Sequence record: MT664721
Source of the DNA: Escherichia phage vB_EcoM_APEC
Length of the DNA: 35,832 nt
Direction: 5' to 3' (one strand)
This document shows, one piece after another, positions 12,868-29,152 of the stretch. Within the stretch, counting starts at the first letter, position 1. Each line of letters starts with the position of its first letter. A program made the translations under genes and the position numbers. The notes under the pieces were generated by a model. That model was given only the letters and a program-made list of their open reading frames with translations. It ran no database searches and was not told the DNA's origin.

Positions 12868-13206
12868 ATGGAAGATTTTGCAAAAGCTGTAGCGGATTAC
12901 TTCCGAAGCAATATAGGCTTGCTATCTGGCGTAGTGATAGGAATGCTTATTTATATTCTGACTGCGAAAAAAAAGACATGGCGAGAGAGGATTGTTAATG
13001 CTTCAGGTGGTGGCCTGCTGGCAATAGTTTTTGCTCCACACATTGCTACATTCTTTGACAAGCCGAATTACGCTGTGCCTATTGCGGTTCTTATTGTGTA
13101 TTTCAACGAGTGGTTACCAGAACTTATACAAACCTTTGCACCGAAATACATTAAAGTCCTCATTAAGCGTTTTACCGGAGTTGACCTAGATGACTCAAAT
13201 AAGTAA
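12868..13206 (+). CDS. holin-like membrane protein, 112 aa
   Basis: Two to three predicted hydrophobic helices; directly upstream of the endolysin. Confidence 0.5.
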   Translation: MEDFAKAVADYFRSNIGLLSGVVIGMLIYILTAKKKTWRERIVNASGGGLLAIVFAPHIATFFDKPNYAVPIAVLIVYFNEWLPELIQTFAPKYIKVLIKRFTGVDLDDSNK

Positions 13207-13474
13207 CTTCACATGGGGAGTGTTGCTAGAGAATCTAGCACTCTTTATTGTATTCCTGTGTATTGCAAGCGTGGTTATACAGCACATGCGAAAGCAAATT
13301 GTATTGGGCGTATTCTGGCATATATCTTTTGTTATTGGTCTAGTGATTACTTTTACACTAATACTTGACCCATATCCTAGAATATTTGATGAAGCACAAA
13401 CAGCATATAAGTTATTTATTGCTGTAATTGCCGTTGGACTCTGCAATAAAATAAGCAAAGAAGGTGGGTTCTAA
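13190..13474 (+). CDS. membrane protein, 94 aa (second holin / antiholin candidate)
   Basis: Multiple hydrophobic segments; overlaps previous gene; precedes the endolysin. Confidence 0.45.
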   Translation: MTQISNFTWGVLLENLALFIVFLCIASVVIQHMRKQIVLGVFWHISFVIGLVITFTLILDPYPRIFDEAQTAYKLFIAVIAVGLCNKISKEGGF

Positions 13475-13475
13475 T

Positions 13476-14084
13476 ATGATCATGACAGAGAAAGGCTTTG
13501 CTGTTTTAAGGTCACATTTTGGTAGCTTGAAGCAATCGCAAGTTGACGGAATTAATACCATTGTTGAGCAGTTCAATGCTCAGGGTGTGACCAACTACAA
13601 CCATGCAGCCTACATGCTCGCTACAACTTGGCATGAAACTGCAAAAACCATGCAGCCAATTGAAGAATATGGAAAGGGTAAAGGCCGTCCTTATGGAACA
13701 TGGTACAAGAACAGCAAGGGTCTGCTTTACAGCTTTATAAACGGATTTAAAAAGGTTGCCTATCTGTTCAATGACCATCCCCATCTCTATTATGGTCGTG
13801 GCTACGTGCAACTTACATGGTTTGAAAACTACCAGAGAGCATCCAAGAAACTCGGCGTAGACTTTATAAATAATCCAGGGCTTGCACTAGACCCTAAACC
13901 TGCTGCTGATATTATGATTGTCGGAATGCGTGAAGGTTGGTTTACCGGAAAGAAACTGGATGATTACATTTCAGGAAATAAAAAAGATTACGTGGGCGCA
14001 AGGAAGATTATCAACGGACTAGATAAAGCTAAACTCATTGCTGATTACTCTGCAATATTTGAAAAGGCTTTGCGCCAGCCATAA
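13476..14084 (+). CDS. endolysin, glycoside hydrolase family 19 (chitinase-like) type
   Basis: Motifs HETAK...YYGRGYVQLTW resemble GH19 catalytic region; ATG at 13476 with AAGGTGGG upstream (track starts at GTG 13464). Confidence 0.75.
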   Translation: MIMTEKGFAVLRSHFGSLKQSQVDGINTIVEQFNAQGVTNYNHAAYMLATTWHETAKTMQPIEEYGKGKGRPYGTWYKNSKGLLYSFINGFKKVAYLFNDHPHLYYGRGYVQLTWFENYQRASKKLGVDFINNPGLALDPKPAADIMIVGMREGWFTGKKLDDYISGNKKDYVGARKIINGLDKAKLIADYSAIFEKALRQP

Positions 14085-21206: not shown

Positions 21207-21437
21207 ATGATTTTACAAAAGCCTTTATTTTGGCACTGGTGCAAACAAGAAACTGGAAATATAGCATATTTGGCTAGAGAGTTAGGCGTAAGCCGAACAT
21301 TTGTTTCATTTCTTGTTAGTGGTAAAAAGCCCATACCTCTTGAACATATACCGAAGATTAAACAAGTAACTGGTCTAAAAGCCAAAGAATTGCGACCTGA
21401 TGTTTATGAAATTTTTAAGGATGATTTAGATGACTGA
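21207..21437 (+). CDS. Cro/YdaS-like helix-turn-helix DNA-binding protein
   Basis: GNIAYLARELGVSRTFVSFLVSGKKPIP resembles Cro/YdaS-type HTH regulators; first gene after the AT-rich intergenic region, upstream of the replication genes. Confidence 0.55.
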   Translation: MILQKPLFWHWCKQETGNIAYLARELGVSRTFVSFLVSGKKPIPLEHIPKIKQVTGLKAKELRPDVYEIFKDDLDD

Positions 21438-21651: not shown

Positions 21652-22389
21652 ATGAGTAATTGGATTCCAAATTCTTTTCAGCTTCCAAATTCATTGGTTG
21701 ATGAGAAGTACCTAGTAGAGCTAAAAGGTTCTCCATTAGCTATGTACATCTTCATTGTGAGGAAAACTAGAGGCTGGCAGAAAGAATGCGACAATATCAG
21801 CTTGTCTCAATTTGAGGAGTTTACCGGATATGGTAAAGATGCAGTTTTAACAGGAGTGAATAAGCTTGTTGAGCTTGGTTTAGTTAAGCGCGTTTCTTAT
21901 GAAAACAAGACTTCTTTTTACGAGTTAAATGATCAGCCATTACCTCCTGAAAAGATGCTGTCGGAAAATCCGCTAGCGGAAAATCCGACAAGTGCTGTCG
22001 GAAAATCCGACAAGTTGCTGTCGGAAAATCCGACACACAATAACAAAGAAAACAACTTTAAAAAAACAAATATAAATAACCATCCTAAAAAATTTGAGTT
22101 CAAGAAGGAATTACTAAAACTTGGGGCTAGTGAAGACTTAGTAAATGATTGGTTGATTGTTAGAGGGAATAAGAAGGCATCAAACACCCAAACTGCTTTC
22201 AATGGGTTTTTAAAACAAGTGAATGATTCTGGACTTGATGCTGAAACCGTTCTGAAAATCTGTGTTGATAAATCTTGGAGTGGCTTTAAGAAATCATGGT
22301 TATCGAATATTGATCTATCTGAATACCAGACAGAACCCAAGGAACCGAAGCAAGACAGTACATACGAAATTGAACTGGTGGAATATTAA
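21652..22389 (+). CDS. replication initiator, lambda O-like N-terminal domain
   Basis: LAMYIFIVRKTRGWQKECDNISLSQFEEFTG parallels the lambda O N-terminal domain (RKTYGW...SQ); iterons and an AT-rich tract lie inside the gene. Confidence 0.8.
   Translation: MSNWIPNSFQLPNSLVDEKYLVELKGSPLAMYIFIVRKTRGWQKECDNISLSQFEEFTGYGKDAVLTGVNKLVELGLVKRVSYENKTSFYELNDQPLPPEKMLSENPLAENPTSAVGKSDKLLSENPTHNNKENNFKKTNINNHPKKFEFKKELLKLGASEDLVNDWLIVRGNKKASNTQTAFNGFLKQVNDSGLDAETVLKICVDKSWSGFKKSWLSNIDLSEYQTEPKEPKQDSTYEIELVEY
21959..22035. repeat. four iterons (17 bp palindromic unit TGTCGGAAAATCCGACA), putative origin-binding sites
   Basis: Copies at about 21959, 21975, 21996 and 22019 (two perfect, two variant), followed by an AT-rich tract (22036-22100), all inside the O-like gene. 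Confidence 0.7.
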
Positions 22390-24918: not shown

Positions 24919-25162
24919 AAATTTAAAAATCGCAATAATAGACGAGCAGCATTTAACTGCTGTTTGCGAGGTGCTGGAAAGTATGGGGTATCATCCATAC
25001 CAACCAAGTAAAAGACTACAATTTATTTATACTCAGACAGATGGGCTTTATTCATTTGGTGATGATTGTGTTTCTAGTATTTCTTATGAAACTGTAACCC
25101 TTCGCGACCTTCTGCAAATGCGTGATGAAATGGTAAAGGAGAAGATTAATGGACTTAATTGA
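24911..25162 (+). CDS. hypothetical protein, 83 aa
   Basis: Coupled ORF. Confidence 0.5.
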   Translation: MFKNLKIAIIDEQHLTAVCEVLESMGYHPYQPSKRLQFIYTQTDGLYSFGDDCVSSISYETVTLRDLLQMRDEMVKEKINGLN

Positions 25163-25550
25163 AAAGCTGTGTGGGTATGAGAACTCGAAGCGATTATTTC
25201 ATGTATACGATCACGCACTAATGTTTAGATATTATCCAAACTATTCTGAGAACTCAGATAATTTCGTTAATGTTTTTGTGCTTGATTTAAAAACAGCCCT
25301 TCTCGAATACCGCCGAGCAAATAATATTTTTGAGGTTGGGGATAAGGTTGTAGAGATAACAGATTATCCTAGCAATGATGTACTAACAGTTAAATCTATA
25401 TCGGATAATCTATTAGTGTGTGAAAGTGATGATCTTAGCGCAAGTTATATTTTGTCTAATAAATATAAGCCTTATTCTTATGTTAGTCACGCTACCGATG
25501 CAGAAATCGAAGCAGACCATCGCCTACCAGAGAAGGATAAAGATGTTTAG
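25149..25550 (+). CDS. hypothetical protein, 133 aa
   Basis: Coupled ORF. Confidence 0.5.
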   Translation: MDLIEKLCGYENSKRLFHVYDHALMFRYYPNYSENSDNFVNVFVLDLKTALLEYRRANNIFEVGDKVVEITDYPSNDVLTVKSISDNLLVCESDDLSASYILSNKYKPYSYVSHATDAEIEADHRLPEKDKDV

Positions 25551-25752
25551 CTATGAGGGTTTATTCGCTGCATCTTTGATAATTTCAATATTTATTATGC
25601 TGTTTATGTTGTTTTATCTAAGTGAACTGAACAGGGCTAAAAAATATATAAAACCCTGTTCTGTTTTAGTCTTTGTCTATGCGGTAATTACGGTTTTTAT
25701 CGTTCTGCCGATTTTTCTTTACGATGTAATTATTTGGTTTTTAAGTGTGTGA
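25543..25752 (+). CDS. small membrane protein, 69 aa, two predicted TM helices
   Basis: ATG at 25543 with AAGGA upstream; two long hydrophobic stretches. Confidence 0.45.
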   Translation: MFSYEGLFAASLIISIFIMLFMLFYLSELNRAKKYIKPCSVLVFVYAVITVFIVLPIFLYDVIIWFLSV

Positions 25753-25760
25753 GGTGAACC

Positions 25761-26726
25761 ATGATTAGTATGAATAGCAGTTTAATTAACCATGCATTGA
25801 GTGATCAGTTAGCCAGAGAAGTTGAGGAATTTCTGGCGCGTGGTGGAAAAGTAAAGTCTGAAGGTATTCAGCGCCGTGATATTGAGGAATTAACGCCGGA
25901 CTTTAAGCGCGACTTTGTAATATCAGGAAGAAAACCTGAAATGGTCAAGGCTGAGAAAAAGGAAGAAAAAGAACCTAAACCAAAGAAAGAGAAGGTTAAG
26001 GTGATTATACCAAAGCCAGAACCTAAACCGAAACGCGAACCTAAGCCCAAGAAGCAGGTAGTCAAAGTAGTTAAGGCCAAACCATTGCCGAAACCAAAGC
26101 CAGAACCTAAACCAAAGAAAGAGAAAAAAGAAAAGGTATTTACTAAAGAGACCTTAAGGGTTAGAGCTAACCAGAAATCGCGTGAAGATGCTTTGAAAAA
26201 GGGTATGGATACTTTTGAAGGTGAGTGTAAAAAGCATGGCATGACTGTATTTAAGATTCACAGTGATGCATTTAGATGCCGTGAATGTGCAGAGCTTGAC
26301 AAGCAGCGCAGAACTGAAGCCAAGAGAGCTAAACGTGATCAGCGAGAAGTTAGAAATGAGGATAGAAAGAAAGCGGCTATTGCAAATGGTTATACTAAAT
26401 TTGATGCTGAATGCCTGCATCATGGCTTAACCGAGCATCATCTTACGAGGAATAGCCGTAATCACACAATTATGGTGTGCACCTTATGCAAGAAAGAAAC
26501 TAACAAGCGAACTGTAGAGAGAAGGAAGAAAGTCCAGTACAGGGATTATGAGCGTAACGCTTTTATTAGAAATCAACTGGCCAATAGAAGAATAAGCTGT
26601 GTTGCGCTGGCAGATGCGATTAATGCTAGTCCATCAACCATGAATAAGATTAAACGTGGTGAACAGCTTTGCAGCGATAGACTATGGCAAGCCATTAATC
26701 AGTTCTTTGAAAAACTTGATAAATAA
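25761..26726 (+). CDS. DNA-binding protein with Lys/Pro-rich repeats, duplicated Cys-containing motif and C-terminal helix-turn-helix, 321 aa
   Basis: GAGGTGA RBS; EPKPK repeat tract (about residues 67-122); two copies of a (F/K)(E/D)..EC..HG.T....CxxC motif; C-terminal RRISCVALADAINASPSTMNKIKRGEQ resembles an HTH. Confidence 0.55.
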   Translation: MISMNSSLINHALSDQLAREVEEFLARGGKVKSEGIQRRDIEELTPDFKRDFVISGRKPEMVKAEKKEEKEPKPKKEKVKVIIPKPEPKPKREPKPKKQVVKVVKAKPLPKPKPEPKPKKEKKEKVFTKETLRVRANQKSREDALKKGMDTFEGECKKHGMTVFKIHSDAFRCRECAELDKQRRTEAKRAKRDQREVRNEDRKKAAIANGYTKFDAECLHHGLTEHHLTRNSRNHTIMVCTLCKKETNKRTVERRKKVQYRDYERNAFIRNQLANRRISCVALADAINASPSTMNKIKRGEQLCSDRLWQAINQFFEKLDK

Positions 26727-26785
26727 GTATTGTAAAGCATATCTATGAATGGTATGCTTTATTACATTAAAGTGAGGGAAATGAA

Positions 26786-27058
26786 ATGGACACTGGCATT
26801 TTAGATGCAATTCACAAGTTGACTGATTTGTGTATTGAAAAAAGCTTAGAGAGTAATATTTGCTTTAAGGTTGAGGTTACCCGAATCGCTGACGGTATGC
26901 ACGTTATGGTAATAAGAAACGATAAAGTTGTGTCATGGGTGAATGGTTCAACAGGGTTTAGATTCTATGATTTTGAACGGAAGGAGTGGAACATCAATGC
27001 CGAGAATCATATTTACTGGTGCATGTCTGAAGTAAGGAGAATTTCAAATGAGAGATAA
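26786..27058 (+). CDS. hypothetical protein, 90 aa
   Basis: GAGGGAA RBS; follows a weak hairpin. Confidence 0.45.
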   Translation: MDTGILDAIHKLTDLCIEKSLESNICFKVEVTRIADGMHVMVIRNDKVVSWVNGSTGFRFYDFERKEWNINAENHIYWCMSEVRRISNER

Positions 27059-27147
27059 AGAAAGCTGCCCTTTATGGTTTGGTTCGATTCTTTTTATGGT
27101 GGTCTTTGTTCTGTTTTTATTATTGGCTTATAAGGTGGCAGGTTGAT

Positions 27148-27780
27148 ATGGAAGATTTTAAAATTTTTGTAAAAGATGAAGCGGCAAGCAAGGAAGCCCA
27201 GGAGTTGTTTTTTGGGGTTGGTTTTAGGGGTGGTAAATATAAAGGTTATGATGGGAATAAGCAAAAAACAGAATATAGGTTGTGGGCAAATATGCTTAAG
27301 AGGTGTTACTCGAGATCATCTCAATTAGCTAGACCATCCTATATTGGTTGTGAGGTCTCTGATAACTTTAAAGAATACGATTACTTTTACGAGTGGTGTC
27401 AAAATCAAACCGGATTCAATGAAAAAGGATTTCAACTTGATAAGGACCTATTAAAAAAAGGGAATAGGATTTACTCTGAGGATTTATGCTTGTTTTTGCC
27501 AAGTGAAATCAATACCGCACTAATACTCAGAAAATCAAAAAGAGGTAAATATCCAATAGGTGTTACTTACTCAGAAAGAGATAGATTATTTGCATCAACA
27601 TTAACTATGTATGGGAAAAACACTCATGTTGGATATTTTAAAGATGAGATGTCGGCATTTTTGAAATACAAGGAGGTTAAAGAGGCCTATCTAAAAGAAC
27701 TCGCCAATCTATACAAGGAACAAATTAACCCTCTTGCGTATCTTGCTTTGTTGAACTACGAGGTATCCATTAATGACTAA
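27148..27780 (+). CDS. hypothetical protein with HNH-like motif, 210 aa
   Basis: ATG at 27148 with AAGGTGG upstream (the track's longer version begins in a hydrophobic out-of-context stretch); YRLWANMLKRC motif similar to the 18844 gene product. Confidence 0.45.
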   Translation: MEDFKIFVKDEAASKEAQELFFGVGFRGGKYKGYDGNKQKTEYRLWANMLKRCYSRSSQLARPSYIGCEVSDNFKEYDYFYEWCQNQTGFNEKGFQLDKDLLKKGNRIYSEDLCLFLPSEINTALILRKSKRGKYPIGVTYSERDRLFASTLTMYGKNTHVGYFKDEMSAFLKYKEVKEAYLKELANLYKEQINPLAYLALLNYEVSIND

Positions 27781-28354
27781 TCTATCAGAAATCGACATAG
27801 TTGTTTTGAAGAGGAATGAAACGATGAAAATGAAAGAATATCTAAACGAGAAATATGAACTGATTAATGCGCCTGAGTCAGAAGCTAAAGAACCACATGC
27901 TAAGGGGTGGATTGAAGTACCAGAGGGGGCAGAGATATTAACTGTTGGTATTGATCAGCGTGTATTCTGGAAAGGTGATTTGAGCTGGAATATTGATGGT
28001 TACGAAACTAAAGAGTGGAGATCAACTGATAGTTTCCCGATTTACATGAAGAATTACGAGAAAACGGTTAAGGTATTATGGCAACGCAACGCACCTACCC
28101 TGACAGAAGAACTGCCGTTTATTGATGATGAGCCACATGGACACTACAAGAAAGATGTTAGCAATTTAAATAGCATTGATGTTTATCGTGTATTAAAACT
28201 TTTTGATGTTAAAGACCCTGCATTGCAACACGCAGTAAAGAAAATATTATGTGCTGGTGATCGTGGCACAAAAGATAAGGTTCAGGATATTCAAGAGGCT
28301 ATCGCTTCACTTAATCGCTCCCTAGAGATGATTAAAGAGGATGGCTGTATGTGA
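27773..28354 (+). CDS. hypothetical protein, 193 aa
   Basis: Coupled ORF (ATGA overlap). Confidence 0.5.
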   Translation: MTNLSEIDIVVLKRNETMKMKEYLNEKYELINAPESEAKEPHAKGWIEVPEGAEILTVGIDQRVFWKGDLSWNIDGYETKEWRSTDSFPIYMKNYEKTVKVLWQRNAPTLTEELPFIDDEPHGHYKKDVSNLNSIDVYRVLKLFDVKDPALQHAVKKILCAGDRGTKDKVQDIQEAIASLNRSLEMIKEDGCM

Positions 28355-28361
28355 GGTGAAC

Positions 28362-28718
28362 ATGATTAAACCTAAATGGGGTGGTTATAAAATCCCTGCA
28401 TTAAAAGAGAAGTGTAATTGTATGAGACGAGCAGCAAAGATAGACGAGAATCAACCAGAGATTGTAGATGCATTGCGAGCTATGGGGTGTAGTGTGACAA
28501 ACCTTTCAGCGGTTGGAAATGGATGTCCTGATATTTTGGTTGGTTTTCGTGGAATCAATCTGCTATTTGAAATTAAAGACGGTAAGAAGCCGAAGTCTAA
28601 GCGCCAATTAACATCAGATCAAGTGAAGTGGCATACCGCATGGAATGGTAAGGTTTATATCGTGGAAAGTGTTGAACAGGCTATTACTATTATTAATGAC
28701 CCGAATACTTATATATAA
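28362..28718 (+). CDS. VRR-NUC-like (PD-(D/E)xK) nuclease domain protein
   Basis: GCPDILVGF...LLFEIKDGK...QVKWH resembles the VRR-NUC motif arrangement; ATG at 28362 with GAGGTG upstream. Confidence 0.5.
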   Translation: MIKPKWGGYKIPALKEKCNCMRRAAKIDENQPEIVDALRAMGCSVTNLSAVGNGCPDILVGFRGINLLFEIKDGKKPKSKRQLTSDQVKWHTAWNGKVYIVESVEQAITIINDPNTYI

Positions 28719-28792
28719 ATATTTTTCATTAGTAATTTGCTGATTGTGTTAGTATATTTGTTTTAAGAATTAATCCTCACGGGTTAAGACTA

Positions 28793-28843
28793 AACCATCT
28801 TCCTTATCTATCCTCTACCAAAATTTGAGTAAGGAAGGTGGTT
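28793..28843. other. 14 bp inverted repeat (one mismatch) with 23 nt loop in a non-coding region
   Basis: AACCATCTTCCTTA (28793-28806) pairs with TAAGGAAGGTGGTT (28830-28843). Confidence 0.4.
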
Positions 28844-29013
28844 ACCTTAAAAGTAAGACTGGTGTGTAAGTGCCTTTGTTTATGGCGTTGCAATCGAAAC
28901 TTTACTCCAAGAAGCCCCTGTTGACGCAGGACAAGCAAAGAGTAAATTGCAAACATCATACCCTGCATTTCGGGGAAATAATAAACATGACTGAAGCGAA
29001 AGACCTTCATAGA

Positions 29014-29037
29014 AAGCCCCTTAATTGGGGTTTTTTA
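29014..29037 (+). terminator. rho-independent terminator inside the non-coding region
   Basis: GCCCC-TTAATT-GGGGT stem followed by TTTTTT. Confidence 0.55.
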
Positions 29038-29090
29038 TTGCCTGTTCATAAGTATTGGTTATGGGTTAATATATCTTATATAAATAATTT

Positions 29091-29099
29091 TGATATAAT
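29091..29099 (+). promoter_or_regulatory. extended -10 promoter (TGaTATAAT) upstream of the structural module
   Basis: TG at 29091-29092, one base, then TATAAT at 29094-29099; AT-rich upstream; GGAG at 29141-29144 and ATG at 29153 downstream. Confidence 0.45.
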
Positions 29100-29152
29100 C
29101 GCGCGCGTGAGATAATGTTATTATCAGGTTTGTTTATATAGGAGTGTCGAAA

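Follow-up and report, generated by a model that had tools for sequence, protein, structure and literature searches.

A phage protein that may combine a SutA-like RNA polymerase anchor with zinc units and a Cro-type helix-turn-helix

Results

Gene and Modules

Escherichia phage vB_EcoM_APEC (sequence record MT664721), of which we analyzed a 35,832-nucleotide (nt) stretch, hereafter the window, carries at positions 25761-26726 of the plus strand a complete open reading frame (ORF) with an ATG start, which encodes 321 amino acids (aa) and a stop codon and is preceded, 5 nt upstream, by the Shine-Dalgarno sequence GAGGTG. An exact-sequence look-up shows that the product is identical to QMP81497.1, "repressor," of the same phage, and the gene sequence is thus already public under that name. 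The gene is ORF40 in the genome paper (PMC8229158), where the repressor role was assigned from a helix-turn-helix (HTH) of the Cro/CI type, and it is this HTH alone that accounts for the name. An earlier note on this DNA had instead described a multi-part DNA-binding regulator, made of a Lys/Pro tract, two Cys motifs and an HTH-like segment in a combination not recognized as a known family. While this description holds for each of the parts it named, and no curated family spans the whole 321-aa protein, it overlooked an N-terminal module of the SutA type.

As can be judged from profile searches and AlphaFold2 (AF2) models, the protein is composed of consecutive modules, all encoded on the plus strand. 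A SutA-like RNA polymerase (RNAP)-binding module (residues 7-34; 25779-25862), supported by Pfam PF20661, phmmer and AF2, is followed by a Lys/Pro/Glu-rich spacer (residues 61-125; 25941-26135), recognized by its composition and its AF2 model. Next come two zinc units, both supported by BLASTP, alignment and AF2. Unit 1 (residues 129-182; 26145-26306) is predicted to fold as helix-three strands-helix, with a predicted local distance difference test score (pLDDT) of 93-98, and unit 2 occupies residues 191-249 (26331-26507). The protein ends with a Cro/C1 (XRE)-type HTH domain (residues 269-318; 26565-26714), which rests on Pfam, a profile search and AF2. Judging by this set of sequence features, the protein probably binds both RNAP and DNA.

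N-Terminal Module

The module consists of an amphipathic helix (residues 7-26) followed by R-G-G-K-V, and the Pfam family SutA-RBD (PF20661) matches residues 12-32 with an E value of 1.2e-6 (28.2 bits). When residues 1-65 were compared by phmmer with the sequences in the Protein Data Bank (PDB), SDQLAREVEEFLARGGKVKS (residues 14-33) was aligned to RDALAKAMEEFLSRGGKVQE of the SutA chain 7F0R_G, an alignment that is non-significant by itself (E=0.2). Native SutA numbers are obtained by adding 50 to those of the phage protein, assuming that chain 7F0R_G carries four extra N-terminal residues, and with this four-residue offset its letters agree with every residue named by He et al. (2022; PMC9300723). 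According to that study, SutA residues 57-90, which include a helix spanning 57-76, bind a hydrophobic groove on the β protrusion of RNAP. Binding was substantially impaired there by Ala at L67, M71, F74, L75, V81, I84, K60 or R64, and likewise by a bulky residue at G78 or G79. In the phage protein, seven of these 10 interface positions defined by mutation are kept: L17, F24, L25, G28, G29 and V31 are identical to L67, F74, L75, G78, G79 and V81 of SutA, while V21 conservatively replaces M71. The AF2 model is in keeping with this correspondence, since it shows a helix (residues 4-26, pLDDT 94) that ends right before R-G-G and so mirrors the SutA helix.

The phage protein is nevertheless no SutA orthologue. 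It scores 14.6 bits with the NCBIfam SutA equivalog NF041490, versus a cut-off of 145, it possesses neither the acidic N-terminal tail nor the wedge loop of SutA, and its 321 aa include other domains. About six non-acidic residues precede its N-terminal helix. Because tail and wedge loop are missing, no SutA-like opening of the β lobe is to be expected. A full-text literature search found no papers on SutA-like or PF20661 proteins.

A Family of Phage-Associated Relatives

Residues 125-321 were searched exhaustively with HMMER against 1.84 billion representatives, which gave 57 proteins at E<=0.001, and the members of this family carry one to five copies of the zinc unit each. Their sequences suggest a common plan for these ~57 uncharacterized relatives, that is, an N-terminal anchor, a long charged linker, one to five zinc units and often an HTH. 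Among the contigs read for context, most look like phage or prophage, and two are from Acinetobacter. Members occur in Acinetobacter lwoffii and Acinetobacter variabilis.

The N-terminal module recurs in this family. SutA-RBD was detected at E<=0.01 in 13 of 59 members (best 3.5e-11), a hidden Markov model (HMM) of the module, built from the clear cases, picked up 19 members at E<1e-3, and precomputed Pfam tables list PF20661 for the members P0001, P0002 and P0049. By eye, the variant (V/I)E-x-(F/W)L...N(K/Q)...LP-x-G-(F/Y)-T-x-(F/Y)-P-D-G can be seen in the N termini of many further full-length members, and several of the members that show no such N terminus are short, possibly incomplete sequences. 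An equivalent module is present in most full-length members, and by these sequence criteria the SutA-like anchor appears to be a family trait and not a chance match.

Close relatives are few. Word-indexed protein searches gave only two close homologues and one distant one, and nothing when a profile of 126 zinc units served as the query. A single-protein locus search found only near-identical phages in IMG/VR and nothing in GTDB genomes. A megablast search with the region had no match in a phage collection (apparently one without MT664721 itself), and megablast revealed no copy of the gene in 5,426 complete E. coli genomes. The sole phage match by tblastn was a distant relative near one end of Acinetobacter phage Acjo_20, annotated as hypothetical, while tblastn with a second family member found nothing in phages or plasmids. 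PADLOC gave no link to defense systems.

Lys/Pro-Rich Spacer

Of the 65 residues between positions 61 and 125, 14 are Pro and 27 are Lys or Arg. AF2 models them without secondary structure and with a pLDDT of 42-58, so that the spacer, with its EPKPK-type repeats, is predicted to be disordered or extended. The direct repeats noticed earlier in the underlying DNA are indeed present, albeit dispersed. They comprise two 24-nt copies that are 100% identical (25970-25993 and 26102-26125) and a three-copy family of 24-mers (26009-26032, 26027-26050 and 26093-26116) that are 75-96% identical, and Tandem Repeats Finder detected no tandem array in the DNA of the tract. Opposite the tract, the minus strand has a 124-aa ORF (25868-26242) with many Gly, Leu, Phe and Ser residues, which most likely reflects the low-complexity Lys/Pro coding sequence and is not a gene. 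In TonB, Glu-Pro and Lys-Pro tracts form an extended spacer. A JGI "TonB" label on one member of the protein cluster is, however, a composition artifact of the Pro-rich tract, since there is no Pfam TonB match.

Zinc Units

The putative zinc ligands form two motifs, C156-x2-H159-x13-C173-x2-C176 and C218-x2-H221-x18-C240-x2-C243. Contrary to the outcome that would have undone the initial proposal, the motifs can be aligned: units 1 and 2 match each other by BLASTP (E=1e-5 for the pair) and are thus homologous repeats. All six Cys are invariant in an alignment of 59 homologues, which were gathered by HMMER and not by Cys pattern. In a second alignment, of 126 units pulled out of the family, ligand invariance is circular since the extraction pattern required the ligands; the non-ligand positions kept in it are R5 (87/126), N9 (69), A16 (117), G20 (101), F24 (112), G32 (118) and T34 (86). 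Both units of the phage protein have a net positive charge, with 17 and 16 Lys/Arg versus 11 and 9 Asp/Glu, respectively.

Folded alone from the 126-unit alignment, the unit is modeled with a pLDDT of 94 as a helix (2-18), three strands (23-28, 32-38 and 43-45) and a second helix (46-53). In this model, C-x2-H would sit where strands 1 and 2 are joined by a turn and C-x2-C where the final helix begins, a ligand geometry suggestive of a treble clef. There was no significant structural neighbor for the predicted fold, a profile of the unit reached only E=0.16 at best against PDB sequences, and a Pfam scan of the 126 units gave scattered weak matches and no family for the unit. Among these matches are Zn_ribbon_DnaG, in two of the 126 units (E=0.0034), and DUF723, also in two (E=0.03). 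As for the former, neither profile scores nor fold place the unit in the DnaG CHC2 zinc ribbon family (PF01807). The unit may be distantly related to DUF723. A protein with two DUF723 domains is encoded at 20190-21065 of L012, an Acinetobacter prophage that also carries a member of the family.

C-Terminal HTH

For the C terminus, the evidence comes mostly from the family. On the phage protein itself, Pfam HTH_26 scores E=0.058 when the whole sequence is used and E=0.0051 on the C-terminal segment, whose 17.5 bits fall short of the gathering score (22). A profile of nine family C termini, by comparison, matches the phage Cro structures 8CO2 (E=5e-5) and 8C7K (E=2.5e-4), as well as a designed HTH binder (2e-6) and a LexA-type HTH, and five of the nine match Pfam HTH_3 (best 5.4e-7). 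AF2 predicts helices at 280-288, 291-298 and 306-318 with a pLDDT of 60-77. The Cro/C1 (XRE)-type HTH at the C terminus is thus real, as had been surmised from its HTH-like appearance.

Uneven Conservation Within the Gene

Comparison with P0002, to which the protein is 66% identical overall, reveals strikingly uneven conservation. Identity is 98% over residues 1-45, 82% in the spacer, 32% in zinc unit 1, 58% in zinc unit 2 and 80% in the HTH, which makes the N-terminal segment the best-conserved part of the protein. DNA identity is a mosaic, at least 93% over 25501-26000, 58-65% over 26101-26500 and 95-98% over 26701-27100. By these sequences, the zinc cassette was either swapped or evolved rapidly within an otherwise conserved gene. 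Against the soil-metagenome phage L001, the boundaries of the mosaic are sharp, and inside the gene the drop to ~60% identity (26000-26600) is confined to the zinc-unit region. Identity to L001 falls again over 27100-28400, where a single 400-aa DUF6378 protein replaces an HNH gene and a 193-aa ORF.

Alternatively, the protein could serve host takeover, either blocking the β-protrusion site for host factors or pinning RNAP on DNA, and so inhibit or redirect host transcription. The RID of Mfd and CarD dock at this same protrusion. All the evidence for an RNAP anchor applies here too, and the activating tail and wedge loop of SutA are absent, with only those ~6 residues before the helix. The one to five basic zinc units could provide avid DNA binding of low specificity, and their fast divergence between close phages is what low-specificity or arms-race surfaces show. 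Sequence-specific XRE HTH domains are, however, typical of gene-specific regulators, and the gene belongs to a delayed-early operon beside replication genes, unlike an immediate-early shut-off gene. We therefore regard takeover as improbable, although it has the best claim among the alternatives considered here.

Genomic Setting

In the window, a leftward Erf/exonuclease cluster is followed by a rightward early operon, which contains, in this order, a YdaS/Cro-like HTH gene (21207-21437), a lambda-O-like initiator, a DnaB helicase, small ORFs and the gene for the 321-aa protein. Downstream of the latter are a 90-aa ORF, an HNH endonuclease, a 193-aa ORF and a resolvase-like nuclease and, after a 425-bp gap, genes for portal, scaffold/protease, capsid, tail, internal virion proteins, terminase and lysis. 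The gene thus lies downstream of the replication genes and in the same orientation, in a delayed-early operon, ~2.4 kb upstream of the first structural gene, and its suspected position near the end of the early region is confirmed. A scan for domain families, which covered all ORFs of at least 300 aa, found no phage RNA polymerase among the scanned ORFs, and transcription of the phage is thus presumably the work of host RNAP.

Does the gene encode an ordinary Cro/CI-type repressor deciding between lysis and lysogeny, as its deposited name and the genome paper imply? The C-terminal Cro/XRE HTH is real, and it is from this HTH that both the GenBank name and the ORF40 assignment (PMC8229158) derive. 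Yet the scanned ORFs include no integrase or recombinase, no S24 peptidase or S24-type repressor and no CI-type oligomerization domain. The protein itself has no S24/CI C-terminal domain, and its gene, downstream of replication genes and co-oriented with them, is not at an immunity locus. The missing copies in 5,426 complete E. coli genomes also count against a lysogeny repressor. In the prophage L012, moreover, a family member comes directly after DnaB, and the immunity region has an HTH+Peptidase_S24 repressor of its own together with a small gene in the Cro position. Other relatives are found directly after O and a DnaC-like loader (L010), three genes upstream of RusA (L007) and, in the P2-like contig L013, between the lysis genes and the integrase. 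These varied positions, together with the repressor that L012 has of its own, speak against an immunity repressor without fixing any single alternative. A repressor would also leave the RNAP-binding motif, the spacer and the zinc repeats unexplained. We consequently find this role decidedly improbable.

The neighborhood fits another possibility, namely that the protein is a replication accessory that brings host RNAP to the origin or fork, for origin activation or RNAP-made primers, and whose CHC2 units would act on DNA like primase zinc domains. Relatives directly after DnaB (L012) or after O and a DnaC-like loader (L010) point in this direction, as does a weak PHROG match to phrog_3171, "replication initiation protein" (E=4.6e-5). 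The phage encodes a DnaB as well as an O-like, iteron-bearing initiator, and no primase was seen among the scanned ORFs. The C-x2-H...C-x2-C order of the zinc units equals the ligand pattern of the DnaG zinc ribbon, to which two of the 126 units are weakly matched, but PF01807 membership, as described above, is not borne out. We rate this role as quite improbable, between takeover and the lysogeny repressor.

Several other features of the window deserve mention. Four copies of a 20-nt iteron, TGCTGTCGGAAAATCCGACA, spaced by 15-23 nt, are found at 21946-22035, inside the lambda-O-like gene (21652-22389), and this region probably serves as the origin of the phage, in a lambda-like arrangement. 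Upstream of the gene of interest, a 110-aa, strongly hydrophobic ORF (25420-25752, plus strand) stops 8 nt before the start codon of that gene. This stop overlaps the Shine-Dalgarno region, which suggests translational coupling. The same ORF overlaps a 133-aa ORF (25149-25550), and one of the two start assignments is doubtful. vB_EcoM_APEC has been described as a probably temperate myovirus of E. coli APEC O78 (PMC8229158). A T7-type portal (PF12236), a nozzle-like tail protein and large internal virion proteins give its gene content a podovirus-like look, and the scanned ORFs yielded no match to a sheath or tube. Its composition (GC 36-46%; 41.3% overall in the genome paper) and relatives look unlike those of a coliphage, the nearest portal relatives, at 41-46% identity, being in Alcaligenes, Acinetobacter and Yersinia phages.

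A Conserved Noncoding Region Before the Structural Genes

The idea that the protein activates late genes had been tied to the region 28719-29152, and a conserved promoter-like region found there is the only link between the two. When 28700-29150 was aligned with two relatives, ~290 noncoding nt (roughly 28853-29143) proved to be almost invariant in the three phages, even in the one whose protein is 66% identical. Within this region lie the hairpin of an intrinsic terminator (29015-29040), with a stem that the relative L008 retains despite differences in the outer pair and the loop, and, downstream of it, an extended -10 element, TGATATAAT, at 29091-29099, with a GC-rich CGCGCGCG discriminator after it and no recognizable -35. 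The terminator hairpin aside, 28850-29045 shows no exceptional RNA folding (z=-1.3), and Rfam and tRNA scans of the window found nothing. The region could be a small RNA or leader with a late promoter, or a packaging site. In L001, the same intergenic region (12958-13813) has an insertion of ~440 nt and so reaches 856 nt without a called gene; this long noncoding stretch has no Rfam match at E<=1.

Potential binding sites were also considered. The 18-nt motif TATATAAATAWTTTTSAT has two exact copies, at 28712 and 29077, and 12 CTTATATAAA-like sites were observed versus 4.2 +/- 2.0 expected, a mild enrichment. Neither is taken as evidence of binding by the protein. A promoter with a weak -35 is of the kind that requires an activator, which fits the late-activator idea and is no evidence for this particular protein. 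If the protein does act in this region, the conserved HTH is the likelier reader, given that the region is invariant and the zinc cassette is not.

A terminator ahead of the late genes raises the possibility of a Q-like antiterminator that would bind DNA near the late promoter, load onto RNAP and read through 29015-29040. The gene order is lambdoid-like, with O, helicase, nin-like small genes, a resolvase and a conserved noncoding stretch ending in a terminator before the late genes, and DNA- and RNAP-binding parts are combined as in Q proteins. The Q protein of lambda contains a zinc site. Known Q proteins, however, engage the β flap and the RNA exit region, a different surface of RNAP from the β protrusion. 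No Q-family match was obtained in Pfam, PHROGs or NCBIfam, and a distance of 2 kb, with four genes, separates the terminator region from the gene, which is not adjacent to the late promoter. Moreover, there is a good extended -10 promoter downstream of the terminator, which leaves no obvious need for read-through. Of the roles weighed here, this one seems to us the least plausible by a clear step.

Discussion

The best functional clue to the role of the 321-aa protein is its SutA-type RNAP-binding motif, which leads us to favor a regulator that acts through direct contact with RNAP. In the mechanism that we propose, the N-terminal helix and the G-G-K-V strand would dock in the hydrophobic groove of the β protrusion of host RNAP, the site used by SutA, as homology suggests. 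The spacer, ~65 residues with a demonstrably Lys/Pro/Glu-rich composition, would separate this anchor from the DNA-binding part, and the two basic zinc units and the Cro-type HTH would bind phage DNA. A DNA-bound protein holding RNAP would raise the local concentration of the enzyme at nearby promoters, that is, it would activate them by recruitment. Middle or late phage promoters with a weak -35, for example the extended -10 TGATATAAT at 29091-29099, are speculative targets.

Our confidence differs between the parts of this proposal. Activation of phage promoters by a DNA-bound factor that recruits RNAP is the function we prefer for the protein, but only tentatively, and we put its chances somewhat below even. 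That the late operon is the specific target appears unlikely. On a broader view, a phage family might have captured the RNAP anchor of SutA, a dormancy factor of bacteria, and fused it, via a spacer, to arrays of CHCC zinc units and an HTH, to give a "natural two-hybrid" activator in a single polypeptide that works through the β protrusion. We offer this scenario as a doubtful possibility, and in its radical variant RNAP would be delivered to the phage origin for priming.

Several points weigh against activation by recruitment. Every functional claim made here is inferred. The PF20661 match (28.2 bits) is slightly below the gathering score of 29.3, and three of the interface positions of SutA are changed (K60 to N10, R64 to S14 and I84 to E34). 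SutA homologues have been reported in the Pseudomonadales-Oceanospirillales clade, outside which lies E. coli, the published host, and overexpression of SutA had no rrn effect in E. coli. The relatives occupy varied genome positions. No operator was identified, and counts of AT-rich motifs are only mildly above chance. Finally, the zinc region shows 32-58% identity in a pair of phages that agree at ~100% in the putative target region, and this divergence fits poorly with zinc units that read a conserved operator at the late promoter.

While an RNAP anchor and an XRE HTH are known kinds of module, their arrangement here, the proposed use of the β protrusion by a phage factor and the zinc repeat are undescribed. 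Phage regulators have repeatedly exposed new control surfaces on bacterial RNAP, and we know of no phage factor shown to use the β-protrusion groove where SutA binds. If docking at this site is true, the SutA anchor would be a portable module traded among mobile elements, a family of roughly 57 sequence clusters would be defined and a new small zinc domain cataloged. The deposited "repressor" annotation would be corrected as well, a label that formed part of the case for a candidate therapeutic phage being temperate.

Comparison with Known Systems

The closest parallel is SutA of Pseudomonas aeruginosa (PDB 7XL3, 7XL4 and 7F0R), with which the phage protein shares the amphipathic helix, at matching predicted boundaries, and R-G-G-K-V. 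SutA, however, is a chromosomal protein of 105 aa that opens the β lobe by means of its acidic N-terminal tail and wedge loop and has no DNA-binding domain, whereas in the phage protein the motif is at the extreme N terminus and fused to DNA-binding modules. With TonB, there is in common the alternation of Glu-Pro and Lys-Pro tracts, but the phage protein has neither the C-terminal domain nor the membrane anchor of TonB. Its zinc units have the ligand order of DnaG-type CHC2 zinc ribbons (PF01807), C-x2-H...C-x2-C, and differ from them in that C-x2-C is predicted at the start of a helix and that no structural match was found.

As for the HTH, the last 50 residues are of the Cro/C1 type seen in phage Cro and XRE regulators (8CO2 and 8C7K). 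Unlike in these regulators, the domain terminates a 321-aa multi-domain protein devoid of a CI-type dimerization or S24 domain, encoded outside the immunity locus. Lambda-type Q antiterminators resemble the phage protein in that they bind DNA and RNAP and are encoded after replication and nin genes, but there is no Q-family profile match, the RNAP surface is another one and the gene is apart from the late promoter.

Finally, recruitment-type activators are well known in phages, with T4 MotA working with sigma, and P2 Ogr and Mu Mor/C with alpha/sigma. None of these has sequence similarity to the phage protein, and none is known to use the β protrusion. Ogr is nevertheless a zinc-finger protein too, and the proposed logic is the same in all of them, a DNA-binding phage protein contacting host RNAP for the expression of later gene classes.

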